From: Patescibacteria group bacterium
Lineage (GTDB): Bacteria; Patescibacteriota; Patescibacteriia; S139-126; S139-133
Direction: 5' to 3'
NCBI GenBank assembly: GCA_049604715.1
Contig: JBMYTV010000003.1
Span: forward strand, 4,228 to 68,227
Length of the DNA: 64,000 bases
Under the pieces are notes generated by a model. It saw nothing but the letters and a program-made list of their open reading frames with translations, was not told the DNA's origin and did no database searches. The position numbers and the translations under genes are program-made. Below, in pieces: positions 5,336 through 22,196 of this stretch (the stretch's first letter is position 1; the number at the start of each line of letters is the position of its first letter).

Positions 5336-6901
5336 TTAGGTCATTATGCTATCAAATACCATTTGCCATGGCTTCTGCACTTCCATGCAGTGAAGAACCG
5401 TAGGTGCAATATGCCCTAGCACTCCTTGCCCTAGCTTCTTCTGCTCATGCGGATGATTTGAAACAATAATAAATGGTACTGGATTAGTAGAGTGCTCTGT
5501 ATCAACACCGCCTGTACCTGTGATTATTTCTTCTACATTACCATGGTCAGCTGTAATAAACAAATGACCGTTTTTTGCTAGCACTGCCTTAACTAAACGG
5601 CCAATATTCTCATCAATAGACTTTACCGCAGCGAGACTGGCCTCAAGGTTTCCAGTGTGACCAACCATATCTGCATTGGCAAAATTAGCAGCTATAAAGT
5701 CATACTCATCATTTTCTATCTTCTCTATGATGGTATCGGTTATCTGAGGAGTTGCCATCTCAGGAGTCTCATCATAAGACTTCACATTTGGCGATGGTAT
5801 AAGCATGCGTTCCTCTCCAGCTACAGGATCAGCATGTCCGCCATTGAAGAAAAAAGTAATATGAGCAAACTTCTCACTCTCAGCTATATAAAGCTGCCGC
5901 AAATCACCAAGCGCATATGGGAGTGTTCCTTCTAAGTCTTCTGAAGGAAATGCAGTAAGTATACTATCTAGATCAGGACCAAAATCAGTCATAGCCACAA
6001 ATACCAAGTTTTCTAATGTCTTTTTTCTAGTAAAACTTTTTGGGTTTTTTTCAGTAAAATCTGGTTGGACAAATACCTTTGATAACTGACGTGCTCTGTC
6101 AGATCGAAAATTGAAAAATATAACCGCGTCATTGTCATGTATACGCGATGGCTTACTGCTATCTGATGCTATGATCCTTGGTGTAATAAACTCATCCGAC
6201 TCTCCTTCTTCATATGCTTTTCGTATAGCCTCTTCAGAAGAACTGAACTTTGGAATGTTTGTCCCAAGTGTAAGTGTGTCATACGCAAGCTCAGTACGAT
6301 CCCAAGACTTACGTCTATCCATACCATAGAACCGTCCCATAATGGTTACAATCTGCTCGTTTGGTTGTAGCTTTTTCTCAAGCTCTGATACAAACGTCAG
6401 CCCTGAGAACTTCTCAGTATCCCTTCCATCGGTAAACAAATGCAAATAGACATGTTCTATTTTGCGTTTGCGAAATAACTCAACCAAGGCTATAAGATGC
6501 TCTGGATTTGAGTGACCAGAGTTAAAATCTGTCAAAAGACCAACCAAGTGAACTGATGATTCATGCTCTGTTACGTGCTGGACTGCTTGTTCAAAGGCAG
6601 CGTTTTTATAAAAAGTACCCTTTTCAATGCTATTTGATATTTTAAGAACGTCCTGCTCTACTATCCTACCTGCACCGATATTAAGGTGACCCGCCTCTGA
6701 GTTACCATCTTGATGTGGAAGCAAACCAACTGCTGAACCAGATGCACCTAGCATGGCATGGGGATACTCCTCCCACAGATGATCCATAATAGGAGTTTGT
6801 GCGAGTTTGATAGGATTTTTTTCTTGTTTTGGGGCTAGTCCCCAGCCATCAATAACCACTAACACTGCTGGACCTGCCTTTTGCGTAGAACTCATATGCA
6901 A
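5336..6901 (-). CDS. gpmI: 2,3-bisphosphoglycerate-independent phosphoglycerate mutase (paralog 1)
   Basis: VIDGWG, GNSEAGH, ITADHGN and STNPVP motifs. It is a divergent tandem paralog of the adjacent gene. Confidence 0.85.
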   Translation of the reverse strand: MHMSSTQKAGPAVLVVIDGWGLAPKQEKNPIKLAQTPIMDHLWEEYPHAMLGASGSAVGLLPHQDGNSEAGHLNIGAGRIVEQDVLKISNSIEKGTFYKNAAFEQAVQHVTEHESSVHLVGLLTDFNSGHSNPEHLIALVELFRKRKIEHVYLHLFTDGRDTEKFSGLTFVSELEKKLQPNEQIVTIMGRFYGMDRRKSWDRTELAYDTLTLGTNIPKFSSSEEAIRKAYEEGESDEFITPRIIASDSSKPSRIHDNDAVIFFNFRSDRARQLSKVFVQPDFTEKNPKSFTRKKTLENLVFVAMTDFGPDLDSILTAFPSEDLEGTLPYALGDLRQLYIAESEKFAHITFFFNGGHADPVAGEERMLIPSPNVKSYDETPEMATPQITDTIIEKIENDEYDFIAANFANADMVGHTGNLEASLAAVKSIDENIGRLVKAVLAKNGHLFITADHGNVEEIITGTGGVDTEHSTNPVPFIIVSNHPHEQKKLGQGVLGHIAPTVLHCMEVQKPWQMVFDSIMT

Positions 6902-6922: not shown

Positions 6923-8167
6923 CTACGATCGTGTTAATCGCTCTTCAATATAAAGCAAGCGGTTGTACTTTACCACGCGTTCTCCACGTGATGGAGCTCC
7001 AGCTTTTATAAATGGCGCATTGATAGCTACAGATAAATCTGCAATAAAGTCATCAGTGGTCTCACCAGATCGATGAGATACCACAGGCGTTAGATTATGT
7101 TTTTGAGCTAGTTGTACAGTCTCAATAGTCTCCGAAACTGTACCAATTTGATTAAGCTTGATAAGCACGGCATTTGCTGCTTCCATATCAATTCCTTGCT
7201 CAAGACGAGTCTTATTAGTCACAAACAAATCATCGCCAACAATAAGCATATTATCCTTGAGCATACGATTCATAATCTGCCAGTTTGCCCAATCATCTTC
7301 ACCTAGACCGTCTTCAATGGAAATAATCGGATAATGCTCTTGCCACTTTTTATAAAGTTCAATAAGCTCAGTTGCATCAAGCTTTTTACCTTCAAACTCA
7401 TATGTACCACCTTTCATAAATTCAGAAGCTGCTACATCAAGCGCAATAGACACATCAATACCTTGTCGATACCCAGCATGATCAATTGCTTGCATCAAAA
7501 GCTGCAATGCTTGGTTGTTGTCTTCCAAGTTAGGCGCAAACCCTCCCTCATCACCAAGTCCGGTTGCATAACCTTGTTCATGTAAGATTGTTTTTAGAGA
7601 CCGAAAGGTCATTACACAAAACTCAAGTTGCTCTTCAAAGGTATCAGCGCTTGGCACAATCATAAACTCTTGAATTGAAAGTGAGTTGTCAGCGTGCCGT
7701 CCTCCATTAATAATATTCATCATTGGACGTGGGATAGCACCCTTTAGTGTAGTTCCATACACGTCCGCTAAATGCCTATAAAGTGGTTTTCCAGCAGATA
7801 GTGCACCTGCTCTAGCACAAGCCATTGAAACTGCTAAAATTGCATTGGCGCCTAATTTTTTCTTATTAGAAGTACCATCTAGAGCGATCATAGTTTCATC
7901 TATCTTTTGTTGATCTTCAGCGTCCATATCAAGCAGCTCATCTCTGATATCCTTTAGGATGTGTTTGATAGCTTTTTTTACACCATCTCCTCCATAACGA
8001 TCATCCTTATCTCGAAGCTCTAAAGCTTCGTGACTGCCAGTAGACGCTCCTGACGGAACTTGAGCAGAAGCCTCTAAACCAGATGAAAGCACAACAGTTG
8101 CTTGAACAGTTGGCCGACCTCTAGAGTCAATAATTTCTCTTGCTGTAATATCGTGTATATGTGCCAT
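6923..8167 (-). CDS. eno: Enolase
   Basis: N-terminus IIDSRGRPTVQATV. Full-length enolase motifs including SHRSGETTD near the C-terminus. Confidence 0.95.
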   Translation of the reverse strand: MAHIHDITAREIIDSRGRPTVQATVVLSSGLEASAQVPSGASTGSHEALELRDKDDRYGGDGVKKAIKHILKDIRDELLDMDAEDQQKIDETMIALDGTSNKKKLGANAILAVSMACARAGALSAGKPLYRHLADVYGTTLKGAIPRPMMNIINGGRHADNSLSIQEFMIVPSADTFEEQLEFCVMTFRSLKTILHEQGYATGLGDEGGFAPNLEDNNQALQLLMQAIDHAGYRQGIDVSIALDVAASEFMKGGTYEFEGKKLDATELIELYKKWQEHYPIISIEDGLGEDDWANWQIMNRMLKDNMLIVGDDLFVTNKTRLEQGIDMEAANAVLIKLNQIGTVSETIETVQLAQKHNLTPVVSHRSGETTDDFIADLSVAINAPFIKAGAPSRGERVVKYNRLLYIEERLTRS

Positions 8168-8169
8168 AA

Positions 8170-9357
8170 TTATTTAACTAATGGTAGTAATCCAGGTTGG
8201 CGTCTATCTGAAATAAAAGATAATAACGCCCCACCTCCAGTTGATGCAAATGTAACATCATCAAGCAAACCAAGACGAGCAAACACCCGTACTGTTTCTC
8301 CGCCACCTATAAAACTCTTCATTGACCCATCATGAGTACGCGCTGCAATAAATTCAGCAATTGCCTCTGATGCATGAGAGCCTTGTCGCTGTTCAATCAT
8401 ACCAAGTGGCCCATTCCATAGTACTGACTTGGCTTTGCGCAGTTGAGATACATACTCTAGTACCGTGTTCATACCAAGATCTACGATTGCATCTTTTTTC
8501 AAAACGCTTTCAATGTCTTTTAGTTGTGACTCAATTTTCTTAGTACTTGTATCATCACAAATGCAGTCTGTAGGAAGTAGTACTTTTTTGTGACGTGCTA
8601 ACACCTTGCCCTCAGTAACAAAATCTTTTTCATAAATTGATGCACCTACTTCTTGCCGTGCGCTCTTAAGTATTGTGTTAGCAAGTACACCCCCAACTAA
8701 TACTCTTTCTGCTTTTGGCATTAGTTTTTGTATAAGTGGAAGTTTTGTAGCAGCTTTTGCACCTCCCATGATCAAGAAATGTGGTTTTGTTGGCTTGGCA
8801 ATAAACTTATCCAATGTACTAACTTCTTTATCCATCAGAAGCCCAGCATAGCTTGGCAAAAACTCTGGTATACCAGTCATACTTGCGCTGTCACGATGAA
8901 TAGCTCCAAATGCATCATTAATAAACACATCACCAAGGCTTGCTAGGTCATGTGCGAATGTATTGTCACTAACCTCCTCACCAGGATGAAACCGCAAATT
9001 CTCCAAAAGGACAACTTGGCCTGGCTTCATCCTGTCGAGGTGACGGCGGGCCCCCTCACCCTCATGCAAGGGTATCATTTTTACTGGTTTACCCAGTAGC
9101 TTTCCCAGCGTGATAGCAACTGGTTTAAGCGATAAGTTTGGATCTTCCTTTCCATGCGGACGTCCACGGTGCGATAAGATAATAACTTTTGCACGCTTCC
9201 GTATCAGATAACGAAGTGTAGGGATAGTAGCCTCTATCCGGTACCGTTCATCAGCATGCACACGTCCTTTTTCGTCTGTCTCAACATTATAATCAACACG
9301 ATATAAAACGCGTTTAGCCTGAAGTGTATGGAGTTGTGTGCAAACCCGTAGCTTCAT
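8170..9357 (-). CDS. pgk: Phosphoglycerate kinase
   Basis: RVDYNVE near the N-terminus, GGGA/GGGETV glycine-rich motifs, and typical 395-aa length. It sits 2 nt upstream of eno. Confidence 0.9.
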   Translation of the reverse strand: MKLRVCTQLHTLQAKRVLYRVDYNVETDEKGRVHADERYRIEATIPTLRYLIRKRAKVIILSHRGRPHGKEDPNLSLKPVAITLGKLLGKPVKMIPLHEGEGARRHLDRMKPGQVVLLENLRFHPGEEVSDNTFAHDLASLGDVFINDAFGAIHRDSASMTGIPEFLPSYAGLLMDKEVSTLDKFIAKPTKPHFLIMGGAKAATKLPLIQKLMPKAERVLVGGVLANTILKSARQEVGASIYEKDFVTEGKVLARHKKVLLPTDCICDDTSTKKIESQLKDIESVLKKDAIVDLGMNTVLEYVSQLRKAKSVLWNGPLGMIEQRQGSHASEAIAEFIAARTHDGSMKSFIGGGETVRVFARLGLLDDVTFASTGGGALLSFISDRRQPGLLPLVK

Positions 9358-9392: not shown

Positions 9393-11012
9393 TCAGGCAT
9401 TTTTTGCCTGCTTCTTCAAAGGCAATTCAACAACAAATGTTGTTCCTTTGCCCTCACCTTGGCTTTTGGCAGCAATTGAACCACCATGACCTTCTATAAT
9501 CTTCTTTACAATAAATAATCCAAGGCCCGTGCCACCTGCGTCAATTTGTGCAATGCCCTTGGCGCGAGAAAACTTTTCAAACAAATGCTCAGCATACTCA
9601 GGATCAATACCAACACCAGTATCATGCACTTTGACAATAACAGAATCAGGTTTTTTCTCAGTTGTAACCCATACCTTACCCGCTGGTGTGTATTTGATAG
9701 CGTTATCTACTAGATTAACCATCACATCTTTGAGCTTATCTGAGTCACCAGTAAACGGCAGACTTTCACCAGCACCAACATAGTCTAGTTCTAGGCCTTT
9801 TTTCTGAGCGATCGGATGTAGCTGGTTTACTACATCAGTAATAAGATCTTTTACATCAAAGTCTACCTGTGCAATTTTTAGTCTTCCTGATTCAATACGC
9901 GATACATTGAGGAAAACTTGCACCAAACGCGCCAAACGCTCCACTTCATCATATACACGCGTCAATGACTCATTTTGTTCTTTATTAAAGTTGCCAAAGT
10001 CACCAGCAATGATCATAGAGAGATAGCCCTTGATACTTGAGAGTGGTGTACGGAGTTGGTGTGAGGTGATTGATAAAAACTCTGTCTTGGCTTCATCTAG
10101 TTTTTTGAGTTTTTTGTTTGCGGTCTCTAATTCCTTTGCTAGAGATTCGATTTGCTTCCTTCTTTCAATTTCACGTACAACACTCCTAACAAGCATAACA
10201 CCAATAACTATAGTAGTGGTTAGAATTAACCCGTTTCCAATAAAATCTACCAAAGTTGGCGAAGTGATAAATTCCAATAGAGATACTAGTATCAGAGCAC
10301 CTACTAGTAATTCTGTTGCGATAACTCTTATATTAAGCAAATGATGTCGGATTATTGCGTATGAAGTAAATAATACAAACGGCAGTGTATATAAATGACC
10401 ATACCTGACACTTGATAAGTCTTGCAGAGCAACTGGATAAATAAAATTAAATATTAACACCAAGGTCACCGTGGTAATTAAACCGATCCCCAAGAATTTC
10501 CACTGTTGACGAACTATACCCTTTGCTAACCGCCATGACCTCACCAAAGTTACTATGGCCAGAGAAATAAATGCTAAAGAGTAAATAGCAAACAATAACA
10601 TACCTGGACCAGCAACAGGCGTAGGGACATGTCTAGTAGTATCAAGATGAGTAAATAAGAAAGGAGAACGGGCTATAAATACCATTAAAACCATTAAAAA
10701 CAGAAATAAGAACCCCCTTTTAAGACCGATCACACTCTTATTGTGTAGAAAACTCTTGGTTAATAGATAAAACAATAACGGGTGAGGTATTGCAGCTGCT
10801 ATTGTCCACTTTGCAAAATTTAATATAGATTCATGCGTACTATTTATCGCAAAAAAGTTTACCATAATCCAAATTGTCTGGGAAATGCCAAATAGTGCGA
10901 AAAAAATAGCGTCCTGTCTTCTTGCGCGAGACCTAAGCACTAGGGATACCAAAAAAAGATTAACTAAGGCTACTAAGACTAATAGAGCAAATTCGACTTC
11001 TCCAAATGACAT
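9393..11012 (-). CDS. Sensor histidine kinase (multi-TM N-terminus; HisKA + HATPase_c)
   Basis: About 6-7 N-terminal TM helices, a coiled linker, the H-box SITSHQLRTPLSSIKGY, and N/G-box motifs (DNAIKYT, DTGVGI, GGTGLGL). No response regulator is adjacent. Confidence 0.85.
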   Translation of the reverse strand: MSFGEVEFALLVLVALVNLFLVSLVLRSRARRQDAIFFALFGISQTIWIMVNFFAINSTHESILNFAKWTIAAAIPHPLLFYLLTKSFLHNKSVIGLKRGFLFLFLMVLMVFIARSPFLFTHLDTTRHVPTPVAGPGMLLFAIYSLAFISLAIVTLVRSWRLAKGIVRQQWKFLGIGLITTVTLVLIFNFIYPVALQDLSSVRYGHLYTLPFVLFTSYAIIRHHLLNIRVIATELLVGALILVSLLEFITSPTLVDFIGNGLILTTTIVIGVMLVRSVVREIERRKQIESLAKELETANKKLKKLDEAKTEFLSITSHQLRTPLSSIKGYLSMIIAGDFGNFNKEQNESLTRVYDEVERLARLVQVFLNVSRIESGRLKIAQVDFDVKDLITDVVNQLHPIAQKKGLELDYVGAGESLPFTGDSDKLKDVMVNLVDNAIKYTPAGKVWVTTEKKPDSVIVKVHDTGVGIDPEYAEHLFEKFSRAKGIAQIDAGGTGLGLFIVKKIIEGHGGSIAAKSQGEGKGTTFVVELPLKKQAKNA

Positions 11013-11029
11013 GGGTCGTATATTAAAGA

Positions 11030-12100
11030 TTAATAATAAGTTGGTTCCGACTTATAACTTCGTGAAATTGAATCTGTATCATTCACTGACTTCCCTATCC
11101 TAGAAAGCATTAAAATCTCCTCTTCGTCTTCGAGATTAAATATCCCTTTTATAGAATCATATATGCTCAGTACTTTTTCTGATTGTGCCCTAGACAAAAA
11201 GTCAACACTCCGCCTATTTTCATTTATCCTATGACGGAGATATATCAGAGCAGCTACTGGTTGTAGTGATAGTTGTTTGGAGGTTAAATGAAGCCAAATT
11301 CTTTGAAGTAATATCCCTACATCAAGATAAAGTTTTTGTTTTTTCACATTTTTAGTAGTACTTAACAAGATATAGGAATCTGTTTCAGAATAGAGCCCTG
11401 CCGAATCTTTAGAGATTAATTTCGTTAAACCTAGAATCTTAGCTAATCTAGCTAAACCGTCAAAATTGAGTAGCAACCTAAAAACAAATTCTTTTTCTTT
11501 TTCCAAGGCTAATGTTCTTATGTACAAACCCTTTCTTTTTTCTTTATGTACCCTCTCTTTCCAAACTATAGATGACAATAAAGAACTTCGAATGAATTTG
11601 TTCTCTAAAATCAGCATCTCATTATAAGACAATAATTTTGCAATCTCATTTACTTTAGTGGATTGACTTACCACTTTAACGAACACCTTCTTGTCAGAAA
11701 AACTTTTAAGTGTGTTAATGACCGAATCTTGAACACTATTCTTTAAGTATGGACGTCTATCTGTAAATCTATTTTTTATACTTTCATAATTTTCATCGAG
11801 TTTTTTTTCAGACTTTGTAAATTCAACCTTTGCAACAATATCACTACATTTATCAGGAAAATAAAACAAATTGCAACCATATCCCTTATATGAAGAGATA
11901 ATCCTTATATTTTCTAATAACGCACCTACAGCCACTAAGCTACCTCTTTTTTGGTAATTGTAAGCTTCGTTATCATTCGATGCAGTACATTTAATAAACA
12001 ACACATCATTCTTGATTCTAAATCTCCAAGGCTGAGAATTGTCACCTGAAGGAGCTTCAACAGCTTCTACGAGTATTTCTTTTATCTTCTGTTCTAGCAT
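11030..12100 (-). CDS. Nitroreductase-superfamily (FMN-dependent, SagB/McbC-like) oxidoreductase
   Basis: APSGDNSQPWRF motif (nitroreductase family S-x-N-x-QPW-F). A second RRPY-type segment suggests a two-lobed architecture. It is the last gene of a 4-gene operon. Confidence 0.55.
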   Translation of the reverse strand: MLEQKIKEILVEAVEAPSGDNSQPWRFRIKNDVLFIKCTASNDNEAYNYQKRGSLVAVGALLENIRIISSYKGYGCNLFYFPDKCSDIVAKVEFTKSEKKLDENYESIKNRFTDRRPYLKNSVQDSVINTLKSFSDKKVFVKVVSQSTKVNEIAKLLSYNEMLILENKFIRSSLLSSIVWKERVHKEKRKGLYIRTLALEKEKEFVFRLLLNFDGLARLAKILGLTKLISKDSAGLYSETDSYILLSTTKNVKKQKLYLDVGILLQRIWLHLTSKQLSLQPVAALIYLRHRINENRRSVDFLSRAQSEKVLSIYDSIKGIFNLEDEEEILMLSRIGKSVNDTDSISRSYKSEPTYY

Positions 12101-12107
12101 AAATAAG

Positions 12108-13550
12108 TTATTTTTTGGTAATTATTTTTGGTTTACCTGTAGAATCTAGGTATACTCCATTAACCTGCTTTGGATAAAAGTTCTTTTCATTATATTCTTT
12201 GAATACGATACTTGGCAGAGCCTTGCTCTTTATCATCTCTAATAACTTACTATACTCTATATTCAGCCTTTTTAAATTCCTTACTATACTTTCCAGTATA
12301 ATGACTTTATCAGCATCTGTTAAATCAGCTACTTTTAAATTCTTTGAAAGCTCTAAAACTAATGTGAAAATTTCTTCTTTGCTTTTATTCTTTAACTTCG
12401 AATATGAGAAAAACTTACCGGTTAAGAATTTCTTACACTCTCTGGACTCAATGCCTGCCAAAATATGTTCTGGGTATATGTGTAGTGCGTAGAAAGTCAC
12501 ACAAACATTAGACCTACCTGTAACTGCTACAATTGGTAGATTCCAAGCTGGAAATTTTTCAACAATATTCCTTATCAACTTTGAGTCACTCTTTTTTAAT
12601 AACTCGTTTATTGTTAGCACACAGCCCTTATCTTTAATGTTGTATCTAACCAAGGGAATAGGCGTGTTGATAGTAATGATCAATTGTTTATTAACACGTT
12701 CAAAGAAAATAGATCTGGGATGGAATTGGTATAACCCAGGCACAGCATCAACGCTATCGAACAACGTCATTAACAATGAAGTGGGGAGTTTTTTTCTTAA
12801 ACTGATGGTCAGCGGTGTTTCGTAAGCCATTTTACCAGCATCAGTAGACCCGTAAACGCTACATATAGAAAAAGGGTCTCTTTGTCCCAAAACAGTTAAC
12901 AAATCATCTCTCCATTCTTCAGAAATTTTACTTCCCGTAACTAAAACTTTGTATTTCTTATTATTGTCAAGCAACTTTAATTTTTTAGCCTCTAATACTA
13001 TATCCATTACAAAAGCTGGGTGGCCTGCAAGTACTATATTTTTATAAAAATTACCTAAAGATGACAAGACTGACAATGTTCTTTCAACCGAGTATCCTGG
13101 GGTAGCTGTGGTTATATTAAATCCTTGCCTAGATAGCCCACGGCATGCAGCTAATGTATGGTGACCAGCCATCCAAAGGTCCATTGCAAAACTAATTACC
13201 ACTAAAGTGGGCTCACCTTTTTTAATGTTATACAGCCCACTAAATAACTTTTTATGTGATAATAAACTAAGCGCCTCTTGTTGATCACTTCCAAACCAAA
13301 ACGTAGGACTACCTGTTGAGCCTGAGCTGGCATAAACAATAGGAGGCTTGCTTAATTTATCCTGTAACTGATCCACTGAGTACTTCAAAATGTAACTTTC
13401 TTTCGAAGTAAGGGGTATTTGCGACCATTCTATGTATGAGCCAACCGATTTTCTTGTATTATAATCGCTTAACTCCAGGTAACTAGCGTAGGCTGGAACA
13501 TTCTTTATAGCATGATAATAAGTTTGTTTTGCGTTTACAAATCCTTGCAT
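12108..13550 (-). CDS. Adenylate-forming enzyme, PaaK / coenzyme F390 synthetase-like (ANL superfamily)
   Basis: YASSGSTGSPTFW matches the PaaK/F390-synthetase P-loop (SSG[ST]TG.P). 480 aa. Confidence 0.6.
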   Translation of the reverse strand: MQGFVNAKQTYYHAIKNVPAYASYLELSDYNTRKSVGSYIEWSQIPLTSKESYILKYSVDQLQDKLSKPPIVYASSGSTGSPTFWFGSDQQEALSLLSHKKLFSGLYNIKKGEPTLVVISFAMDLWMAGHHTLAACRGLSRQGFNITTATPGYSVERTLSVLSSLGNFYKNIVLAGHPAFVMDIVLEAKKLKLLDNNKKYKVLVTGSKISEEWRDDLLTVLGQRDPFSICSVYGSTDAGKMAYETPLTISLRKKLPTSLLMTLFDSVDAVPGLYQFHPRSIFFERVNKQLIITINTPIPLVRYNIKDKGCVLTINELLKKSDSKLIRNIVEKFPAWNLPIVAVTGRSNVCVTFYALHIYPEHILAGIESRECKKFLTGKFFSYSKLKNKSKEEIFTLVLELSKNLKVADLTDADKVIILESIVRNLKRLNIEYSKLLEMIKSKALPSIVFKEYNEKNFYPKQVNGVYLDSTGKPKIITKK

Positions 13551-13552
13551 TG

Positions 13553-14566
13553 TTACTTAGTAAAACTATTATAATTAATTAGATAATTTCCACAAATCTG
13601 TTTCGTTAAGAGTATGCTTCTGACAGCATCACTTGCCACCGCACCAGCCACCATTGAAGTTGTTCCTAACTGTGGTATTGAAACCAATGTACTACCAACT
13701 TCCTTTAGGGAACTCCGTAACCTATCTCCTGGCTCAAAACCTATTATTTTATTAGCAATTCTAATCCAATCTTGCTTGTTTAATAAATGCCCAGCATCTA
13801 CTATCTTCTCATCTTTTAATACGCCGTGAAACAACTCTTGGTCTTCACTGATGTCATACCTTTCAATGCTAATTACAACTTCTTCACCAAAGTCAGTAGC
13901 CATGACTACTGGAATTTTGTTCACTTTACAGTATTTTCTCAACTCAATTTTTATACTTATGTCATCGACAGCGTCTACTAAAACATCAATATTTTCGTTT
14001 ATCACAAAATCATTAATATTACTTTTCTGTACTCCACAATCAAAAAACTTCATATCTATAAATGGATTTACCTCCCAGGATTTTCGCATAGCAACCTCAC
14101 CTTTTAAAGAACCATAATCAACCAGGCCAGCGTTTATCCGGTTTAGGTTAGTAACCTCTACCGTGTCAAAATCTGCTAAAACAAACTTGTTTCCAACAGC
14201 CGATCGTAGTAAACCATCTAATACTTTCGAACCTACTGACATCCCTGCTATTCCAATCTTTGAATTGTATACCTTTACCTGCTCAGCTTGTCGAATCAAG
14301 TTTTTATTCCGTGAGGTAATTAAATCGACATAAAAATCTTCGCCGGGTAAACAGAAAACCCTATCTAACCAATCGTAATGAGCCCACACTCTTTTAATAT
14401 TATGGTGGCACACAAATTCACTTACCAAACTGTCACTTATACTATTCTTTAACTTTGGATTATCAATTAAAACCAACTCCCTTATACAATCATTGAAAAT
14501 ATTAACAATTTCAACTTCTGTATTGAACTTTGGTTTTTCTTCATATATTGTAGGCTTCTCAATCAC
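13553..14566 (-). CDS. ThiF/MoeB/E1-like adenylyltransferase with ~100-aa N-terminal extension
   Basis: Rossmann nucleotide-binding motif KIGIAGMSVGSKVLDGLL at about residue 105. The N-terminal extension precedes the E1 fold, as in MccB/PaaA-type peptide-binding E1-likes. Confidence 0.6.
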   Translation of the reverse strand: MIEKPTIYEEKPKFNTEVEIVNIFNDCIRELVLIDNPKLKNSISDSLVSEFVCHHNIKRVWAHYDWLDRVFCLPGEDFYVDLITSRNKNLIRQAEQVKVYNSKIGIAGMSVGSKVLDGLLRSAVGNKFVLADFDTVEVTNLNRINAGLVDYGSLKGEVAMRKSWEVNPFIDMKFFDCGVQKSNINDFVINENIDVLVDAVDDISIKIELRKYCKVNKIPVVMATDFGEEVVISIERYDISEDQELFHGVLKDEKIVDAGHLLNKQDWIRIANKIIGFEPGDRLRSSLKEVGSTLVSIPQLGTTSMVAGAVASDAVRSILLTKQICGNYLINYNSFTK

Positions 14567-14569
14567 TTG

Positions 14570-16120
14570 TTAATAGATTAGGGTATTAAAGTTCTTTCTA
14601 AATGCCTCTAAATTACTTGTGAAGTCCTTATCTTTATACCAAACAGGAAATACAGCTCTTACTTTTTTATAGAGTTTATCAGAAGATTTTGAGATTTCTT
14701 CATTTACACCCATCACATCGGTAGCCTGTGCAAGAGTAATCAATCCAACCCCGATAATTTGTTTTATAGCCTCAATAACCTGATAACTTAATAACGAAGA
14801 ATTAGTGCCCATGCTAACAATATCTTGATTGTCAGCATTTGTTGTTATGCTGTGTACATAATTAGGAAAACACAAGGTCTGTATTTCAGCGGTTGTGGAT
14901 GTGGCAACAAATTGCAACCCTTGTAAGGCTATATCAAATCCTGGCTTACGTAGATTTAGGAATGGAGGTAAGTGGTCTCGGACATTTGGGTTGAGAAAGA
15001 TATTAACATGTCTTTCTACAGTCATCGCGATACGTGATAGTCCAATCTTTACTTTATCCATCTCGAATGACACGTAATCCCCATGAAAATTTCCTCCATG
15101 TAATAGGGTATCAGCCTTTCCATTGGTTATTGGATTATCTGTTACTGAATTAATCTCGACTTCTATAACTCGTTTTGCATTTTGTATAACTTCCCAAATA
15201 GGACCGTATATCTGAGGCAAACAACGTATTGAGTATACATCTTGAACTTTATGATCAATTTTTCTCACATCGTGCTTTCCTACGTCAATTTTTTTTGCTA
15301 AATCTAATCTATGCTGTAGTAATTTTGACGTACTAAGTGCATTTCTCATTTTCTTAGCAACAAAAATCTGACCTTTATGTGGACGTAGCGCCTGGATTTC
15401 ACTACTTATAGGGTCATCAAACCCAGCCATAAGTTCATATGTGTATGCTCCTGCAACTATAGCCAAATCGATTATCTTACGTGCCTCATATAAAACCAGC
15501 GATCCAATTCCGGACATGGCCGCCGTACCGTTTATTAAGGCCAAGCCTTCCTTTGATACCAAGTTGCTAGGTTTAATTTTTAATCTTTTTAGTACGCTAC
15601 TTGTTTTTTTTACTCTACCTTTATAATAAACCTTTCCCTCTCCAATCAAAGCTAATGCAACGTGTGCTAACTGGACAAGGTCTCCGCTTGCTCCTACAGA
15701 ACCATAGCGTGGAACAGCTGGGACAATACCTGAGTTGATATATAGCTCAATTTGTTTAATAAGCGACCACCTAACCCCAGACCTACCTTTCAATAGCGTA
15801 TTTAATCGCACTAACATAACTGACATACACTGCTGTCTAGTTAAGTATTCGCCCATTCCAGTCGCGTGACTACGTATTAGGTTATATTGCAATTGATTAA
15901 TTTGCTTCTTACTCAACACGTACTGCGCCATAGGACCAAATCCTGTATTCACACCGTATGTTAAAACCGATTCGCCGATTTTCTCAACAAACTTTCTTGA
16001 CTTATCTACTTTGATTTTACATTTCGCATCTACCCTTACCAACACTCCGTTATTTGTAACCTGCCATATTTGATCAATGGTTAAATCCCCTCCCGTTAGA
16101 ACAACAGGTTTACTTGGCAT
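14570..16120 (-). CDS. MIO-dependent aromatic amino-acid ammonia-lyase/aminomutase (HAL/PAL/TAL family)
   Basis: GSVGASGDLVQLAHVAL contains the Ala-Ser-Gly triad that forms the MIO cofactor, and the context is HutH-like. The 516-aa length matches the family. Confidence 0.8.
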   Translation of the reverse strand: MPSKPVVLTGGDLTIDQIWQVTNNGVLVRVDAKCKIKVDKSRKFVEKIGESVLTYGVNTGFGPMAQYVLSKKQINQLQYNLIRSHATGMGEYLTRQQCMSVMLVRLNTLLKGRSGVRWSLIKQIELYINSGIVPAVPRYGSVGASGDLVQLAHVALALIGEGKVYYKGRVKKTSSVLKRLKIKPSNLVSKEGLALINGTAAMSGIGSLVLYEARKIIDLAIVAGAYTYELMAGFDDPISSEIQALRPHKGQIFVAKKMRNALSTSKLLQHRLDLAKKIDVGKHDVRKIDHKVQDVYSIRCLPQIYGPIWEVIQNAKRVIEVEINSVTDNPITNGKADTLLHGGNFHGDYVSFEMDKVKIGLSRIAMTVERHVNIFLNPNVRDHLPPFLNLRKPGFDIALQGLQFVATSTTAEIQTLCFPNYVHSITTNADNQDIVSMGTNSSLLSYQVIEAIKQIIGVGLITLAQATDVMGVNEEISKSSDKLYKKVRAVFPVWYKDKDFTSNLEAFRKNFNTLIY

Positions 16121-16123
16121 ATA

Positions 16124-17119
16124 CTACAATCGTTCAATAGCAATTTCTACAAGTCGATTCGCATACCCCCACTCATTGTCATACCAAGCAACAACTTTCA
16201 ATAAGTTGCCACCAACAACATTGGTGAGAGATAAATCAACTATGCATGATGCGGGATTGCCAATAATATCTGACGATACAATCGGTTCAGAGGTGACTTC
16301 CATGACTCCTGATAAATCACCCGCTGCCGCAGCGTTTAATACTTCGTTCACTTCCTCCACAGTGACGTCTTTTTTGGTAACAAAGGTCAGATCTGACAGT
16401 GACCCGGTAATAACTGGCACTCGTATTGCCATTCCATCAAATGATCCTTGCAAACTTGGGATAACTTTCGTAGTTGCAATCGCAGCTCCTGTAGTTGTTG
16501 GCACAATATTGTGAGCTGCTGCTCGAGCGCGCCGTAAATCTTTGTGCGGTCCATCAACTAATCTTTGATCAGCAGTATATGCATGTACTGTAGTCATCAT
16601 AGCCTTGTCGATCCCAAATGCATCTTCAACAACCTTTACAACAGGTGCAATACAATTTGTAGTGCATGATGCATTGCAAGCAACATTTTCTTTATCATCC
16701 ATACTATCAGCAACACCCTTCACCAGTGTGGTTGTAACTTCGTCCTTAGCTGGCGCTGAAATAACTACGCGCTTAGCACCTGCTTTGGTGTGTGCAGCTG
16801 CTAACTCCTTTGTTCTAAAAATACCTGTACACTCCAAGACAACATCCACGTCTAAATCACCCCAAGGAAGTTTTGCGGGGTCTTTCTCACTGTAGACTGG
16901 GATACTCGCACCATCTACGATCAAATGTGTATCATCACTCTTAACTTCGTGTGTGTATTTGCCATACACAGAATCATACTGCAAAAGATGCGCTAGTGTT
17001 GCCTTATCTGTCAGGTCATTTACACCAACTACCTCAACATCATCGCGATCATACATCACACGAAAAGCCGCCCTCCCTATTCTTCCAAAACCATTAATGG
17101 CAATACGTTTTTTTGACAT
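16124..17119 (-). CDS. gap: Glyceraldehyde-3-phosphate dehydrogenase
   Basis: INGFGRIGR NAD-binding motif, and SCTTNC containing the catalytic Cys. Confidence 0.95.
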   Translation of the reverse strand: MSKKRIAINGFGRIGRAAFRVMYDRDDVEVVGVNDLTDKATLAHLLQYDSVYGKYTHEVKSDDTHLIVDGASIPVYSEKDPAKLPWGDLDVDVVLECTGIFRTKELAAAHTKAGAKRVVISAPAKDEVTTTLVKGVADSMDDKENVACNASCTTNCIAPVVKVVEDAFGIDKAMMTTVHAYTADQRLVDGPHKDLRRARAAAHNIVPTTTGAAIATTKVIPSLQGSFDGMAIRVPVITGSLSDLTFVTKKDVTVEEVNEVLNAAAAGDLSGVMEVTSEPIVSSDIIGNPASCIVDLSLTNVVGGNLLKVVAWYDNEWGYANRLVEIAIERL

Positions 17120-17182
17120 TGTGAAAAATTTAGATGATCAATAACCTTAGTATAGCAAAAAAACCAAACTCACAAAAGTTTT

Positions 17183-17875
17183 TTACGAAATTGTTGTACC
17201 AACTGACACCCCTTCAAGCAATGACTTCATAGACTCATCACTCCATTGAAACACTACAATCGGTAGTGCGTGTTGCTTTGCCATGGCAAATGCAGTTGCG
17301 TCCATAACCTTTAAATCTTTTTTCAAAGCTTCGTCATAATCAAGAGTGTCATAGCGGTTTGCGTCTGGATTTGTATGTGGGTTATCATCATACACACCAT
17401 CAATATGTGTGCCTTTCAACACCGCATCAACCCCGAGCTCCAAACCAAACAAAACCGCAGCTGTATCAGTGCTGAAGTATGGCAATCCAGTACCGCCTAA
17501 GATAATAACCTCACCATCTTCAAAACGGCGACGCGCCTCAAGGGGTTTATGTGGCTCAACAACAGGATCAATCTGAAATGACGACTCAACTCGAGCAACA
17601 ATGCCGCGCTGCTGCAATACCATTTTGAGCATTAGTCCATTGATTACTGCACCTAACATACCTGCATGATCTGGAATCACAGTTGAATACTTGGCAGGAT
17701 CAACAATACGACCACGCATAATATTTCCCGCACCAACAACTACGGCAATTTTTGTGCCCTGTTTTACAAATGACTCAACATGATCAGCAAGACGCTCGAT
17801 CTTTTCTATGGCGATTGCATTTTCATCGCCTTTAAAAAACTCACCTGATAATTTTAGTAAAATTCGTTGGTACAT
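17183..17875 (-). CDS. pyrH: UMP kinase
   Basis: ILLKLSGE N-terminus and full amino-acid-kinase fold motifs. Confidence 0.9.
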   Translation of the reverse strand: MYQRILLKLSGEFFKGDENAIAIEKIERLADHVESFVKQGTKIAVVVGAGNIMRGRIVDPAKYSTVIPDHAGMLGAVINGLMLKMVLQQRGIVARVESSFQIDPVVEPHKPLEARRRFEDGEVIILGGTGLPYFSTDTAAVLFGLELGVDAVLKGTHIDGVYDDNPHTNPDANRYDTLDYDEALKKDLKVMDATAFAMAKQHALPIVVFQWSDESMKSLLEGVSVGTTIS

Positions 17876-17889
17876 AAAGAAATAAAATA

Positions 17890-17915
17890 ATACTCATAAA
17901 AACAGCCGCTTGCTA
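17890..17915 (-). terminator. Hairpin terminator/attenuator between tsf and pyrH
   Basis: acagccgc-ttgcta-gcggctgt hairpin. On the minus strand it is followed by TTTATGAGTATTATTTTATTT. Confidence 0.45.
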
Positions 17916-17930
17916 GCGGCTGTTTGGAAA

Positions 17931-18518
17931 TTAAATAGAAAAACGATGGAATTCAGTAACCTGAATATTTTCACCGAGCTTTGCGATCATCTCAGTGAAC
18001 CATTTCTCAATGGTTAGTTTGTCATCTTTGATAAATGACTGCTTCATCAGACAAACATCAGAATAGTATTTATCAAGCTTACCTTCTGCGATCTTCTGGA
18101 TTATATCTTCTGGTTTTCCTGACTCTTTCATCTCTTCTTTATAAATAGAAAGCTCTTTGTCTTTTACATCTTGTGGAACCTCATCTGAAGTAATGTATTG
18201 TGGATTCATTGCAGCTACTTGCATAGCAAGATCATTTGCAAGTGCTTTAAAGTCATCAGTGCGTGCAACAAAATCTGTTTCGCAAAGCACTTTTACCATT
18301 GCAGCGATCTTTCCATTGCTATGTACATACATACCAACAATACCTTCACCAGTTGATCGATCTGCCTTTTTTGCGGCAATCTTCTGACCAGCTTTCCGAA
18401 GATACTCAACTGCGGCATCCATGTCACCGTTTGTTTCTTCAAGTGCTTTCTTGGCATCCATCATGCCTGCACCAGTAGCTTCACGAAGCTTCTTTACTGC
18501 TTCTGCTGTAATACTCAT
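17931..18518 (-). CDS. tsf: Elongation factor Ts
   Basis: N-terminal AVKKLREATGAGMMDAKKALEE (UBA-like EF-Ts signature). Confidence 0.9.
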   Translation of the reverse strand: MSITAEAVKKLREATGAGMMDAKKALEETNGDMDAAVEYLRKAGQKIAAKKADRSTGEGIVGMYVHSNGKIAAMVKVLCETDFVARTDDFKALANDLAMQVAAMNPQYITSDEVPQDVKDKELSIYKEEMKESGKPEDIIQKIAEGKLDKYYSDVCLMKQSFIKDDKLTIEKWFTEMIAKLGENIQVTEFHRFSI

Positions 18519-18535
18519 AGTAGTATGTATGTTAA

Positions 18536-19294
18536 TTATTTCTTTGGTTTATTCGGCTTGTCAGCTTTTTGTGCGCTTTCAGCCTGTTTTTTTGCATATA
18601 CTGCTTGTGCCTCATTGATAGTATGAGCAACACATGAGCAGAAAAGTTCAAGTGAACGAACCGCATCGTCATTTCCAGGTACTGGATACTCAATGCCAGT
18701 TGGGTTGATATTGGTGTCTACCACACCTACAACTGGTACTTTCTTAGTATGTGCTTCAAGACGCGGTGTTTTGTCTTCTTTCAAATCAATCATAAAGACA
18801 GCTCCAGGTAGAGTCTTCATGGTACGAATACCACCAACAAGATAGGTCAAACGATCAATCTCTCTTTGGAATTCTAGCTGTTCTTTTTTGGTATATTTTT
18901 CGTGCTTACCTTGATCACGCTCTTCTTCGAGCTTTTCAAGTTTCTTAATCAAATTTTGAATAGTATCAAAATTAGTAAATGTACCACCAAGCCATTTATC
19001 TACAACATATGGACTTTGTGTTTCGCTTGCGTACTTTCGTACAATATCGCGACCTTGTTTTTTGGTACCGATCCAGAGAACTGATTTGCCGCTGGCAACT
19101 GTATCAAATAAAAAGTCCAAGGCTTGTTCAAGACGCTTGGCTGTTTGCTCAAGATCAATAATATGAATACCCTGGCGCACAGCATAAATATACTGCTCCA
19201 TCTTAGGATGCCATCGTGAGGTAGTATGTCCAAAATGGACACCTGCCTGCATCATATCCAGAAGCTCTGGGATCTTGTGTTCTTTCTTTGACAT
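18536..19294 (-). CDS. rpsB: 30S ribosomal protein S2
   Basis: MSKKEHKIPELLDMMQAGVHFGH S2 N-terminus, so the start is at the internal Met and not the track's upstream Met. It carries a Lys-rich C-terminal tail. Confidence 0.9.
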   Translation of the reverse strand: MSKKEHKIPELLDMMQAGVHFGHTTSRWHPKMEQYIYAVRQGIHIIDLEQTAKRLEQALDFLFDTVASGKSVLWIGTKKQGRDIVRKYASETQSPYVVDKWLGGTFTNFDTIQNLIKKLEKLEEERDQGKHEKYTKKEQLEFQREIDRLTYLVGGIRTMKTLPGAVFMIDLKEDKTPRLEAHTKKVPVVGVVDTNINPTGIEYPVPGNDDAVRSLELFCSCVAHTINEAQAVYAKKQAESAQKADKPNKPKK

Positions 19295-19669
19295 ATAGTG
19301 TTTTCCTTTCTGTGGCCAAAATGGCCCCTCTACACACCTTAAACTCAAGATTTTAATGTCAGACTAGCCAACACGAGGAAATACCTTGATAAGTGTGTAT
19401 GTGTGATTATGTTTAATAAAACCTCTACATAGACATAAAAATGCCCATGCTGCATAGGTATGCCAATACAATACTACAAAATACAACTTTTTGCAAGTAC
19501 CTATTTGATACTTAATATACACTATAATTGATTAAGCAAAGTGGCATAGTAAGCTCTAAATAGTCATGGTGAGCATGCCGAACCATATTATTTTTAAAAA
19601 ACACCCTTCGACAAGCTCAGGGCGACCACTCACCAACTCTAAAGTCCTCTTTTTAGCAGCATTTGGGGT

Positions 19670-19757
19670 CTGGGGTGGCAACTTGTTTGAGCGTCATTGC
19701 TAGAGACGGCTAATGGCAAATTGGCTAATCTAGCGAGTTTTGCCACCCCAGTGTTTT
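19670..19757 (+). other. Nested inverted repeat / candidate structured RNA element in the rpsB-rpmE divergent intergenic region
   Basis: A perfect 12-bp stem (ctggggtggcaa 19670-19681 / ttgccaccccag 19740-19751) encloses an inner 6-bp stem (gctaga 19699-19704 / tctagc 19729-19734). It is followed by a TTTTT run. The intergenic region is ~510 bp. Confidence 0.3.
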
Positions 19758-19795
19758 TGGATACTTTTGACAACAAAAGTATCTATCATTTAGTC

Positions 19796-19824
19796 TTGTC
19801 AAAAAAACCATTTTATGCTATTAT
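19796..19824 (+). promoter_or_regulatory. Putative sigma70-type promoter of rpmE
   Basis: TTGTCA at 19796-19801, a 17-nt spacer, and TATTAT at 19819-19824, ~40 nt upstream of the rpmE start. Confidence 0.4.
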
Positions 19825-19862
19825 GGCAGCACTGTATTGAATTATTTGTATATCAGAAATAT

Positions 19863-20147
19863 ATGAAAAAAGATCTACATCCAGAATGGCATCCAGATGC
19901 AACTATTACCTGCAACGGCGAGGTTATTGCTACTGTGGGTTCCACAGTAAAAGAAATGGAAGTTGAGGTATGGGCTGGTAATCACCCATTTTTCACTGGA
20001 CAAAGTAATGTCGTTGACACCGCTGGCCGAGTTGATCGTTTCAAGCGTTTGCAAGAAAAGCAGTCAGCTGTATCAAAGCAGCGTTCTACCAAAACTGTAA
20101 AAAAGGCAAAACAAGCAAAAGCTCGATCAGACAAAGACGAGAAATAA
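19863..20147 (+). CDS. rpmE: 50S ribosomal protein L31 (Cys-less type B form, with basic C-terminal extension)
   Basis: MKKDLHPEWHPDATITC...VWAGNHPFFTGQ L31 core without the Zn-binding Cys pairs. The likely start is the internal MKKDLHP. Confidence 0.8.
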   Translation: MKKDLHPEWHPDATITCNGEVIATVGSTVKEMEVEVWAGNHPFFTGQSNVVDTAGRVDRFKRLQEKQSAVSKQRSTKTVKKAKQAKARSDKDEK

Positions 20148-20162
20148 CCTTATTTTTTGACA

Positions 20163-20196
20163 AAAACCCCGCGAGTGTATTAGACCCGGGGTTTTT
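20163..20196 (+). terminator. Probable intrinsic terminator after rpmE
   Basis: aaaaccccg...cggggttttt: a 9-bp stem with a ~15-nt loop followed by a T-run. Confidence 0.4.
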
Positions 20197-20210
20197 GCTA
20201 TGATACATGT

Positions 20211-21284: not shown

Positions 21285-22147
21285 CATACAAAAAAGCCCT
21301 TGCCTGGGCTGCTGCAACTTTAAAATCATCCGACTCACCTCACCTTGACAGTGAGGTGCTTTTGGCTTTTGTGCTAAATATAAATCGTGCACATGTACTA
21401 AGCCATTTAGATGATTCCCTAGGGAGAGCAGAACAAAAGAAATTCAAAAAACTTATCCACAAGCGTTTACACGGCACACCTGTTGCCTATTTAACCAAGA
21501 ACAAGTCATTTTATGGTCATGAATTTTATGTAAATAAACATGTGCTTGTCCCCCGTCCTGATACTGAGTGTATTGTTGAATTTCTAAAAAATAAAAACGT
21601 ACATCCAAGAGCTACATATATTGACATAGGCACAGGCTCAGGATGCATTGCTATTTCTATAAAAAAACTTTTCCCTTACAGCACAGTGCTTGCTTCAGAC
21701 ATATCACGTAGGGCACTTAAAGTTGCAAAGAAAAACGCAAAGACGCTTAATGCAGATGTAATTTTTTATACTGGCAACTTATGGAAGCCATACGAAAAGC
21801 TTACCTCAATACGAGCACCACACCATCCGCTTATTGTTATTGCCAATCTCCCCTATCTTGAAAAAAAATACATAACTGGCGACCTTGAGTCAGAACCTCG
21901 CCACGCACTTTTTGCAAAAGACAAAGGACTTAAGCTATACAAGAAGCTACTCAAACAAATACATCACAGCTATATCAAACCCGACATGATCTGTATGGAA
22001 ATATTGCCTGAGCAAGTACAAGGTTTAAAACGTGCAAGCAAACACTCTTTACCAAATTATGCTCCACATATAGTCAAAGATATTAGCAACAAAGAAAGAT
22101 ATGTAATTTTAGAGCGGAAACTTGACGACTCTGATGAAGAGGCGTAG
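21281..22147 (+). CDS. prmC: Release factor glutamine N5-methyltransferase PrmC/HemK
   Basis: SAM-MTase motif [11 protein letters not shown] and substrate motif VIANLPY (an NPPY variant). It is translationally coupled to prfA (ATGA overlap). Confidence 0.8.
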
Positions 22148-22196
22148 GGTAGATACGTAGTCCTTTAAGTTAAACCAATAAACAGGATGGTGTATT

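Follow-up and report, generated by a model that had tools for sequence, protein, structure and literature searches.

What lies between the glycolytic genes gap and pgk in a genome of the Patescibacteria, or candidate phyla radiation (CPR), and how did it come to lie there? The question is raised by a 64,000-nt stretch of DNA from a Patescibacteria group bacterium (assembly GCA_049604715.1, contig JBMYTV010000003.1, positions 4,228 to 68,227), referred to below as the window, in which gap (16124-17119) and pgk (8170-9357), both on the minus strand, are 6,766 bp apart. The initial annotation of this DNA had noticed a same-strand stretch of about 6.7 kb containing a four-gene cluster and a multi-transmembrane histidine kinase without an adjacent response regulator, and considered it consistent with a horizontal insertion splitting a gap-pgk operon. 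The description holds, and neither tblastn searches with CheY and PhoB nor a profile derived from 27 receivers associated with the module recovered a receiver domain in the 64-kb window; the explanation is not supported. The genes between gap and pgk are a conserved five-gene unit that is widespread in CPR/Patescibacteria, rather than a random foreign insert. This module probably makes a small aromatic molecule of the oxazolone type, and we propose, with moderate confidence, that the oxazolone is sensed by the seven-transmembrane (7TM) kinase encoded in the same module.

Conserved Gene Content of the Module

The module is composed of genes for a 4-methylideneimidazole-5-one (MIO)-dependent aromatic amino-acid ammonia-lyase or aminomutase (516 aa, 14570-16120; PF00221, 529 bits), a ThiF/E1-like ATP-dependent enzyme (337 aa, 13553-14566; PF00899, PRK07877), a divergent PaaK-fold adenylate-forming ligase (480 aa, 12108-13550; without a Pfam match and identified by fold search), a monomeric flavoenzyme with a double nitroreductase fold (NTR) that belongs to the flavin oxidase (FDO) subgroup (356 aa, 11030-12100), and the 7TM kinase (539 aa, 9393-11012; HisKA_7TM, HisKA, and HATPase_c), all on the minus strand. 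The four enzyme genes are packed with 2-17 nt between them, and the spacers across the whole array vary between 2 and 35 nt, with 3 nt separating gap from the MIO gene and 35 nt separating the kinase gene from pgk. A promoter and terminator scan gave counts equal to the shuffled expectation, the intergenic gaps being too short, and is uninformative with respect to co-transcription.

Homologs of the ligase (30-49% identity) adjoin ThiF, NTR, and 7TM kinase genes in every Patescibacteria-type context examined. A metagenome scan with the ligase alignment added 80 loci, in which the components were called with one profile HMM each, and the fully sampled set is formed by the 23 loci, including the copy from the window, that extend at least 5 kb on either side of the ligase gene. 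In this set the ligase is accompanied by ThiF (22 loci) and by NTR (22 loci), in 22 of the 23 by both, and the 7TM kinase is present in 21 loci, all of which contain the complete combination of ligase, ThiF, NTR, and kinase. The MIO lyase is found in 11 of the 23 loci, and a dehydrogenase of the ELFV family in three. Some loci additionally contain a catechol-OMT-like O-methyltransferase (Methyltransf_3), another methyltransferase, or an ABC exporter. The gene order observed in the window, MIO-ThiF-ligase-NTR-kinase, recurs in many independent metagenomic loci, and the neighborhoods of the module are unrelated to each other (dnaA/dnaN-ruvAB, pgk, and others). Reports of the NTR family come from Doudnabacteria, Nomurabacteria, Giovannonibacteria, and Paceibacterota. 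Cyanobacterial homologs of the ligase (~30% identity) were rejected as copies of the module, since they stand alone, without ThiF, NTR, or the kinase.

A second architecture of the module was observed in loci L095, L138, L148, L153, L155, L156, L159, and L175, where a receiver gene on the opposite strand and sometimes a MIO lyase gene are followed by ligase, ThiF, NTR (on the opposite strand), and a kinase of ~725 aa. The contigs of this group are up to 1.07 Mb long, with a host GC content of 0.54-0.60, and the taxon may lie outside typical Patescibacteria. The only mobility gene beside any copy of the module is a gene of the phage integrase family located directly downstream of the module kinase at L092:14842-15804.

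Predicted Functions of the Enzymes

The best NCBIfam model for the MIO enzyme is the tyrosine ammonia-lyase FlxA (595 bits, under the cutoff of 700 for that model), and the closest solved structure is that of the tyrosine aminomutase SgTAM (E 1e-92). The MIO motif GSVGASGDL is intact, as are the catalytic tyrosine loop YGVNTGFGPM and the carboxylate-binding Tyr/Arg motif YSIRCLPQ. A histidine occupies the position of His93 of SgTAM, and NQD is found where histidine ammonia-lyase (HAL) has QED. These motifs are common to all 26 MIO enzymes of the module, and the TGFGPM loop is lyase-like by comparison with RsTAL and SgTAM. Tyrosine is the likely substrate predicted from the sequence, being favored by the histidine and by NQD.

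The ThiF protein and NTR match the two halves of a single model. ThiF aligns with the N-terminal half (positions 37-325) of the NCBIfam model PRK07877, "Rv1355c family" (210 bits, E 4e-62; the next ThiF model scores 75 bits), and its nucleotide/Mg motifs NxNRQ and DAVDD align with those of TcdA, whereas NTR matches the C-terminal half (133 bits). Rv1355c is TrzS, a ThiF-FDO fusion protein that turns N-acyl-Trp into N-acyl tryptazolone in steps requiring ATP and O2 (PMC12856293, PMC10404671). TyzB and TyzC form an unfused pair making tyrazolones, and OxzB is a proteobacterial fusion; the N-acyl amino acid is supplied beforehand by a GNAT-like acyltransferase in the OxzAB, TyzACB, and TrzAS systems (PMC12856293, PMC10404671, PMC12596934, bioRxiv 2020.06.11.147165). 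By homology, ThiF corresponds to the cyclase half of TrzS and NTR to the desaturase half, so that the former is assigned to the cyclases of the TrzS/OxzB/TyzB clade and the latter to the FDOs encoded beside a ThiF gene.

The conserved slot that is filled by the acyltransferase in oxazolone clusters is occupied in the module by the ligase. A comparison of its sequence with the PDB gave nothing significant, for which reason a fold search was needed. The AlphaFold2 model (pLDDT 92.6) retrieves BT_0428, PaaK1/2, AjiA1, NatL2, and ClxA as the top Foldseek matches (TM ~0.6, ~15% identity), including PaaK2 and BT_0428 with E 5e-18 and TM ~0.62, and the ANL motif SSGSTGSPT is intact. The ligase has the two-domain ANL fold of PaaK and falls outside the PaaK equivalog family (TIGR02155, 19 bits against a cutoff of 646). 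NatL2, which belongs to the PaaK family, joins two aromatic acids via an acyl-AMP and does not use CoA (PMC7204872).

The combination of an E1-like enzyme with an FMN dehydrogenase was also considered as a sign of ribosomally synthesized and post-translationally modified peptides or thiazole/oxazole-modified microcins. This was rejected, since no locus contains a gene for YcaO or a precursor peptide and the best models are those of small-molecule oxazolone enzymes.

Mosaic Structure of the Kinase

The kinase retains all catalytic boxes, namely H (SHQLRTPL, with the histidine at residue 318), N (DNAIKYT), G1 (DTGVGI), F (FEKFSR), and G2 (GGTGLGL), and scores 57 bits for HisKA and 105 bits for HATPase_c. 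The sensor domain (residues 1-280, 10173-11012; PF16927, HisKA_7TM type) consists of 7-8 transmembrane helices with short loops, and a coiled coil of ~40 residues connects it directly to the DHp domain, PAS and HAMP domains being absent; the linker, DHp, and catalytic domains (residues 281-539, 9393-10172) form the other half of the protein. Such a build is predicted to be a design for sensing a signal within the membrane. The sensor family comprises 1,405 clusters at 50% identity, of which only 12 match at E 1e-30 or better, and it is always N-terminal in proteins of kinase size.

The two halves of the kinase differ drastically in conservation. Compared with locus L083, the sensor of the window kinase is 22% identical and the core 69%, with 32% for the ligase, 31% for ThiF, and 20% for NTR; compared with L088, the sensor is 35%, the core 63%, and the ligase 48% identical. 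The core is also ~73% identical to that of L084. The sliding-window identity switches sharply at residue ~280 (nt ~10,170). The sensor is not simply a fast-evolving domain, since that of L176 is 81% identical to the window sensor over its visible part (residues 113-280), with 73% for the core and the ligase lying outside the visible contig. The best other match of the sensor is found in L110 (46%), where the core is 42% and the ligase 38% identical. Among other pairs of loci with a core identity of 0.6-0.83, the sensor identity is either 0.54-0.80 or collapsed to 0.22-0.35, and the collapse usually coincides with that of the ligase. Identities of the biosynthetic genes correlate better with the sensor (rho 0.42-0.54) than with the core (rho 0.27-0.38).

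Thus, the kinase is a mosaic, in which the variable, or "specificity," half and the biosynthetic genes have been replaced between relatives, whereas the catalytic core is shared vertically with the relatives and is as conserved as the housekeeping flanks. The exchanged tract (~10,170-16,120) covers the sensor half and the biosynthetic genes and is essentially the low-GC tract considered below. There is strong support for the earlier suggestion that kinase and cluster belong together, both from the co-occurrence of the kinase with ligase, ThiF, and NTR in 21 of the 23 loci and from the replacement of its sensor together with the enzymes.

Candidate Output Genes of the Kinase

A receiver gene is located within 7 kb in 10 of the 23 loci. 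After the module kinase, L108, L109, L144, and L163 encode a stand-alone receiver and then a T2SSE/PilB-type ATPase with a receiver domain fused to its N-terminus; the fusions lie just downstream of the kinase at L108:14620-16377, L109:16480-18228, L144:13948-15732, and L163:16222-17988, with the reading frame of the ATPase split in two in L108. T2SSE ATPases also adjoin the module in L089/90, L110, and L173. No DNA-binding response regulator is linked to the module in any locus. Since the linked receivers are either stand-alone or fused to pilus/secretion ATPases, the output would be behavioral rather than transcriptional, which suggests that the two-component system directly controls a pilus or secretion motor.

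Predicted Pathway

The observed gene content, homologies, folds, conserved linkage, synteny, and kinase mosaic suggest the following sequence of events. The MIO enzyme would convert L-tyrosine to p-coumarate, and the ELFV dehydrogenase of sister modules would produce a 2-oxo acid; both enzymes would yield a carboxylic acid by removing the alpha-amino group. The PaaK-fold ligase would adenylate the acid and attach it to an amino acid at the amino group, yielding an N-acyl amino acid. The ThiF-like enzyme would then adenylate the carboxylate of this intermediate and cyclize it, and the flavin oxidase would desaturate the ring to an N-acyl 4-alkylidene-oxazol-5-one, by the chemistry shown for TyzB/TyzC, TrzS, and OxzB. 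The O-methyltransferase and the ABC exporter encoded at some loci fit tailoring and export, and aromatic-acid chemistry in general. The hydrophobic product would be detected within the membrane by the 7TM sensor, and the phosphoryl group would be passed to receivers encoded elsewhere in the genome, corresponding to the stand-alone receivers and receiver-PilB/T2SSE fusions of other loci. The module kinase may therefore sense the module product, which makes the module a candidate system of cell-to-cell signaling.

Several points weigh against this proposal. All functions of the module, from the substrates and products of the enzymes and amide formation by the ligase to the ligand and output of the kinase, are predictions from sequences and structure models. 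For the MIO enzyme a lyase is favored over a 2,3-aminomutase, the two being indistinguishable from sequence. The scores of ThiF and NTR are well below the cutoff of 476 for the full-length Rv1355c model, which a half-protein cannot reach, and their substrate and even reaction type could differ from those of Rv1355c. An N-acyltransferase of the OxzA/TyzA/TrzA type was found neither in the window nor in the Pfam-annotated related loci, and the assignment of amide formation to the ligase is a guess, given ~15% identity to the characterized enzymes of the PaaK family and the fact that PaaK makes CoA thioesters. An acid-generating enzyme, either MIO lyase or ELFV dehydrogenase, is encoded in 14 of the 23 loci and absent from the remaining nine. 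The window itself contains neither a receiver nor a T2SSE ATPase, most of the module loci are metagenomic contigs without a taxonomic label (some of them near-duplicates), and in L163 the sensor was swapped and the ligase kept, at 58-71% identity to its relatives. Finally, the kinase would be linked to the enzymes just as well if its role were only to regulate the operon upon another cue.

The last point leads to the explanation that survives best among the alternatives, namely that the module makes an oxazolone-type or other aromatic product with a different role (an antimicrobial, a stress protectant, a membrane lipid, or a host effector), and that the kinase only regulates its production or the response, sensing another cue such as a host-derived aromatic acid or envelope stress. 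The conserved linkage fits it equally, the physiological role of the known oxazolones is open and links to stress have been proposed (PMC12856293; bioRxiv 2020.06.11.147165), the nine loci without an acid-making enzyme suggest uptake of external acids, and L163 changed its sensor without its ligase. At the same time, a regulator of this kind is at odds with the lack of any linked DNA-binding protein and with receivers that are stand-alone or fused to motor ATPases, and the joint replacement of sensor and enzymes around a conserved core is what is predicted for receptor-ligand specificity. We regard this explanation as possible but rather unlikely.

Synteny and Probable History of the Locus

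The premise that gap and pgk are usually neighbors was examined in distant genomes. The window PGK is at most 41% identical to that of any GTDB species representative, and these matches, mostly from Nitrospira, served only to examine the premise in general: it holds in 72 of the 80 genomes, again chiefly of Nitrospira, with gap immediately preceding pgk. Closer relatives were recovered via a large protein collection and represent six lineages.

In none of the six related lineages does gap lie near pgk. Instead, the closest four, which are L176, L083, L084/85, and the window itself, with eno 68-73% identical, have the same kinase directly before the pgk-eno-gpmI-gpmI block. The contig of L176 (pgk 58%, eno 73% identical) begins inside a 7TM kinase that is 77% identical to that of the window and directly precedes pgk-eno. 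The kinase-pgk arrangement of the window is also found in L084/85 (eno 69%), where the C-terminal half of the kinase is 73% identical. In L083 (eno 68%) the gene order is x150-x175-DUF3048-(NTR-ThiF-ELFV dehydrogenase-ligase)-7TM kinase-pgk-eno-gpmI-gpmI-CAP-CTP transferase-YceG; on either side this locus keeps the gene order of the window, but it lacks the 16.7-kb block at 16124-32811, which in the window holds gap, pyrH, tsf, rpsB, prfA, prmC, a giant M23 protein, three PsbP_2 proteins, TrmB, and Lactamase_B. In the more distant L082 and L086/87 (eno 52-55%) the gene directly upstream of pgk encodes a LamG/Por-tail protein homologous to a window gene at 22.7-27.3 kb. Among the 23 fully sampled loci, pgk adjoins the module in two (the window copy and L083), and gap in the window copy alone; among the relatives, too, gap is next to the module or pgk in none.

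Thus, the kinase-pgk junction is a shared feature of the closer clade, and the position of gap is unique to the lineage of the window. Since L083 is collinear with the window without the gap-containing block, the arrangement of module, kinase, and pgk would have existed before gap arrived, and the simplest history is a rearrangement that brought the rpsB-tsf-pyrH-gap block beside it. The module and kinase would have been upstream of pgk since before the split of the window lineage from L176, L083, and L084, and the biosynthetic genes and sensor half would later have been replaced by a divergent version, with the kinase core and the flanks kept.

Base Composition of the Module

The initial annotation had based its proposal of an insertion on a drop in GC content. 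The drop is real and the profile non-uniform, but three of the four enzyme genes are in the mid-30s rather than the low 30s (NTR 0.321, z -2.6; ligase 0.351; ThiF 0.348; MIO 0.377; compared with pgk 0.425 and gap 0.433, and with a mean of 0.396 and sd of 0.029 for all window genes), and the drop begins inside the kinase gene, at nt ~10,170, and not at 11.0 kb. The tetranucleotide composition of 5-kb segments deviates as well (z +2.9 at 10-15 kb and +2.5 at 11-16 kb), making this region the second most deviant after the gene of the giant protein at 22-27 kb; the GC-normalized dinucleotide signature of the same segments gives z +1.9 and +1.3.

The GC deficit resides in codon position 1 (GC1 0.39-0.47 in the module genes versus ~0.55), with K, N, I, L, and S overrepresented and G, A, D, and E underrepresented, and it is explained by amino-acid content, since it is confined to that position. 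The GC content at codon position 3 (GC3) is ordinary, 0.27-0.32 against a window mean of 0.32, and so is the length-corrected synonymous codon usage (z +0.03 to +1.28). Over 17 related loci the GC content of the module tracks that of the host in the range of 0.26-0.55, being below the host in 14 of the 17 (mean -0.034), although in L153 and L156 the module GC3 is ~0.12-0.16 below the host. Neither a tRNA scan nor an Rfam scan of the window found any hit, no integrase is encoded in the neighborhood of the module, and only short chance matches were found as flanking repeats. With native GC3 and codon usage, a GC content that follows the host, and no tRNA, integrase, or repeat, the composition is no evidence of recent foreign origin.

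The explanation of the locus as a recent foreign island that entered an ancestral gap-pgk operon, its orphan kinase being incidental, is therefore improbable. It would account for the deviating total GC and tetranucleotides, for the gap-pgk adjacency seen in other bacteria, for the patchy occurrence of the module at different genomic sites in each lineage, and for the GC3 far below the host in L153 and L156. However, the module genes are not atypical at synonymous sites, the borders expected of an island (tRNA, integrase, repeats) are missing, the kinase occupies this site in L176, L083, and L084/85 too, whether or not the rest of the module is visible there, the kinase adjoins pgk in the four closest lineages and gap in none of the six, and the kinase core is conserved like the flanks. 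What remains of the idea of transferred DNA is that the low-GC tract coincides with the segment exchanged between lineages (~10,170-16,120), although not as a recent insert between gap and pgk. For the annotation of similar loci, this means that recent transfer should not be deduced from a GC dip restricted to codon position 1 beside strongly conserved glycolytic genes.

By synonymous-site composition, two other, adjacent open reading frames on the minus strand, at 47789-48676 and 48810-49952 (295 and 380 aa, without a Pfam match), are better candidates for recent horizontal transfer; their GC3 (0.45-0.46; z +2.8 and +3.0) exceeds that of every other gene in the window.

Other Functional Explanations

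A role in the catabolism or salvage of aromatic amino acids, with deamination followed by formation of a CoA thioester as in phenylacetate degradation and a kinase sensing substrate availability, is suggested by the source records, where the ligase is annotated as phenylacetate-CoA ligase, by its PaaK fold, and by the fact that both first enzymes remove the alpha-amino group. We consider it very improbable, since no locus contains genes for a ring oxygenase, hydratase, or thiolase, the invariant partners ThiF and FDO have no role in known aromatic catabolism, and the ligase falls far below the PaaK cutoff; to our knowledge, CPR genomes generally lack aromatic catabolic pathways.

It is hardly credible that the module supplies a chromophore, a 4-(hydroxybenzylidene)-oxazolone or activated p-coumarate, to the 7TM kinase as a light sensor: arylidene-oxazolones are indeed conjugated electrophiles, and a tyrosine ammonia-lyase and an acid-activating ligase beside a sensor recall the pyp-tal-pcl genes that provide the chromophore of photoactive yellow protein, but covalent attachment was rejected because none of the Lys or Cys residues of the sensor is invariant in a set of 41 kinases (residue 68, a K in the window kinase, is R in the consensus), many loci come from dark groundwater samples according to the record names, and 9 of the 23 loci lack an acid-generating enzyme.

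Comparison with Known Systems

The preferred reading of the module as an oxazolone pathway with its own receptor can be compared with several known systems. The oxazolone clusters (OxzAB of Pseudoalteromonas rubra and TyzACB and TrzAS of Mycobacterium tuberculosis) share with the module a ThiF-like cyclase, a flavin oxidase of the NTR superfamily, an adjoining supplier of the N-acyl amino acid (in the module, the candidate ligase), and a link to aromatic amino acids. In contrast to the TrzS and OxzB fusions, ThiF and NTR of the module are encoded by separate genes with another gene between them. The module has a PaaK-fold ligase in place of the GNAT/AHL-synthase-like acyl-CoA N-acyltransferase, an acid-generating enzyme, for which the predicted acyl group is aryl-propenoyl or 2-oxoacyl rather than fatty, and a 7TM kinase as an obligatory neighbor, while its hosts are Patescibacteria rather than Proteobacteria or Actinomycetota and its product is only predicted. 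The biosynthetic core of the module is a new form of the known oxazolone pathway, distinguished by the split of ThiF and FDO, the replacement of the acyltransferase by a ligase, and the on-site supply of acid. In the literature searched, we found no description of this gene combination or of oxazolones in Patescibacteria, and the coupling of oxazolone-type genes to a mosaic 7TM receptor kinase is likewise undescribed there.

Among the enzymes of the PaaK family, NatL2 and ClxA, which participate in benzoxazole biosynthesis, resemble the module ligase in the two-domain fold (TM ~0.6), the ANL motif, and aromatic-acid substrates, which for the module ligase are predicted. The module ligase differs from them as a distinct subfamily of ~480-500 aa with ~15% identity that fails the equivalog model, and its nucleophile could be CoA, an amine, or a hydroxyl.

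In its organization the locus resembles the pherotype-type loci comQXP(A) of Bacillus and agrBDCA of Staphylococcus, as well as cqsA-cqsS and luxM-luxN of Vibrio. In these systems, as in the module, synthesis genes lie beside a polytopic kinase whose transmembrane domain would be the binding site of a hydrophobic signal, and the synthesis genes and sensor half are polymorphic while the catalytic half and flanks are conserved; the module locus shows this organization among the few close relatives available, with L163 as an exception. The signals of the known loci are peptides, hydroxyketones, or acyl-homoserine lactones (AHLs), as opposed to a putative oxazolone, and the module lacks an adjacent DNA-binding regulator. 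Its "types" are diverged far more deeply (~20-35% identity), and the sensor alone was swapped in L163.

The array around the module resembles a gap-pgk(-tpi) operon in that gap, pgk, eno, and gpmI are closely packed and share a strand. It differs in the 6.77 kb between gap and pgk, in the absence of tpi between pgk and eno, and in the tandem gpmI genes, and in the relatives gap is not near pgk.

The physiological role of oxazolones is an acknowledged open question, and the authors of the M. tuberculosis study speculate on signaling (PMC12856293). A pathway tied to a membrane kinase, whose sensor is exchanged together with the enzymes, would turn this speculation into a defined ligand/receptor pairing that can be tested. 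It would also imply new enzymology, in which N-acyl amino acids and oxazolones are reached through a PaaK-fold ligase, instead of the acyl-CoA N-acyltransferase, and the module itself generates the aryl-propenoyl or 2-oxoacyl donors. CPR bacteria have tiny genomes, few regulators, and an epibiotic lifestyle that relies on contact with a host. A conserved module of signal and receptor that is sometimes wired to a PilB-type ATPase would offer a handle on how such bacteria sense partners or kin. A bolder extension, which we offer tentatively as an unlikely one, is that oxazolones serve a widespread system of cell-cell communication or kin recognition in Patescibacteria that diversifies into specificity types, in each of which an N-(aryl-acyl) oxazolone of its own would be matched by a 7TM receptor kinase, and the output would be direct control of the receiver-PilB ATPase by phosphorylation, hence of type IV pili, affecting host attachment. 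If this extension is true, it would be the first physiological role of oxazolones and the first dedicated communication system in CPR bacteria.

Neighboring Genes

The upstream flank of the module is formed by gap, which lies outside it and encodes a type I GAPDH (TIGR01534, 419 bits against a cutoff of 367), preceded by pyrH (17183-17875, minus strand). On the downstream side, pgk (PF00162, 379 bits) is the first gene of the conserved pgk-eno-gpmI-gpmI block and is followed by eno (6923-8167, minus strand). The PGK protein is 49-51% identical to those of L083 and L084, as opposed to 68-69% for the adjacent eno product and 67-73% for gpmI, and pgk, beside the kinase junction, may thus have undergone accelerated evolution or replacement. 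The two tandem gpmI paralogs (3759-5330 and 5336-6901, minus strand) are only ~40% identical to each other and keep this order in all of the relatives examined (L082-L087); the long maintenance of the pair suggests two distinct functions.

Farther upstream, the gene at 22682-27280 (minus strand) encodes a protein of 1,532 aa with a Peptidase_M23 domain, two Laminin_G_3 domains, and a Por_Secre_tail, the C-terminal sorting signal of the type IX secretion system. This gene is the strongest compositional outlier of the window (GC 0.459, z +2.2; tetranucleotide z +3.2). Such a sorting tail is unexpected in Patescibacteria, and a homolog of the protein is encoded directly upstream of pgk in L082 and L086. 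Next to it, three small PsbP_2-like proteins (27420-28025, 29405-29995, and 30144-30818, minus strand) are interleaved with an M23 peptidase gene (28060-29283). The trio has low GC1 and normal GC3, like the module genes, and its homologs are located upstream of pgk in L086.

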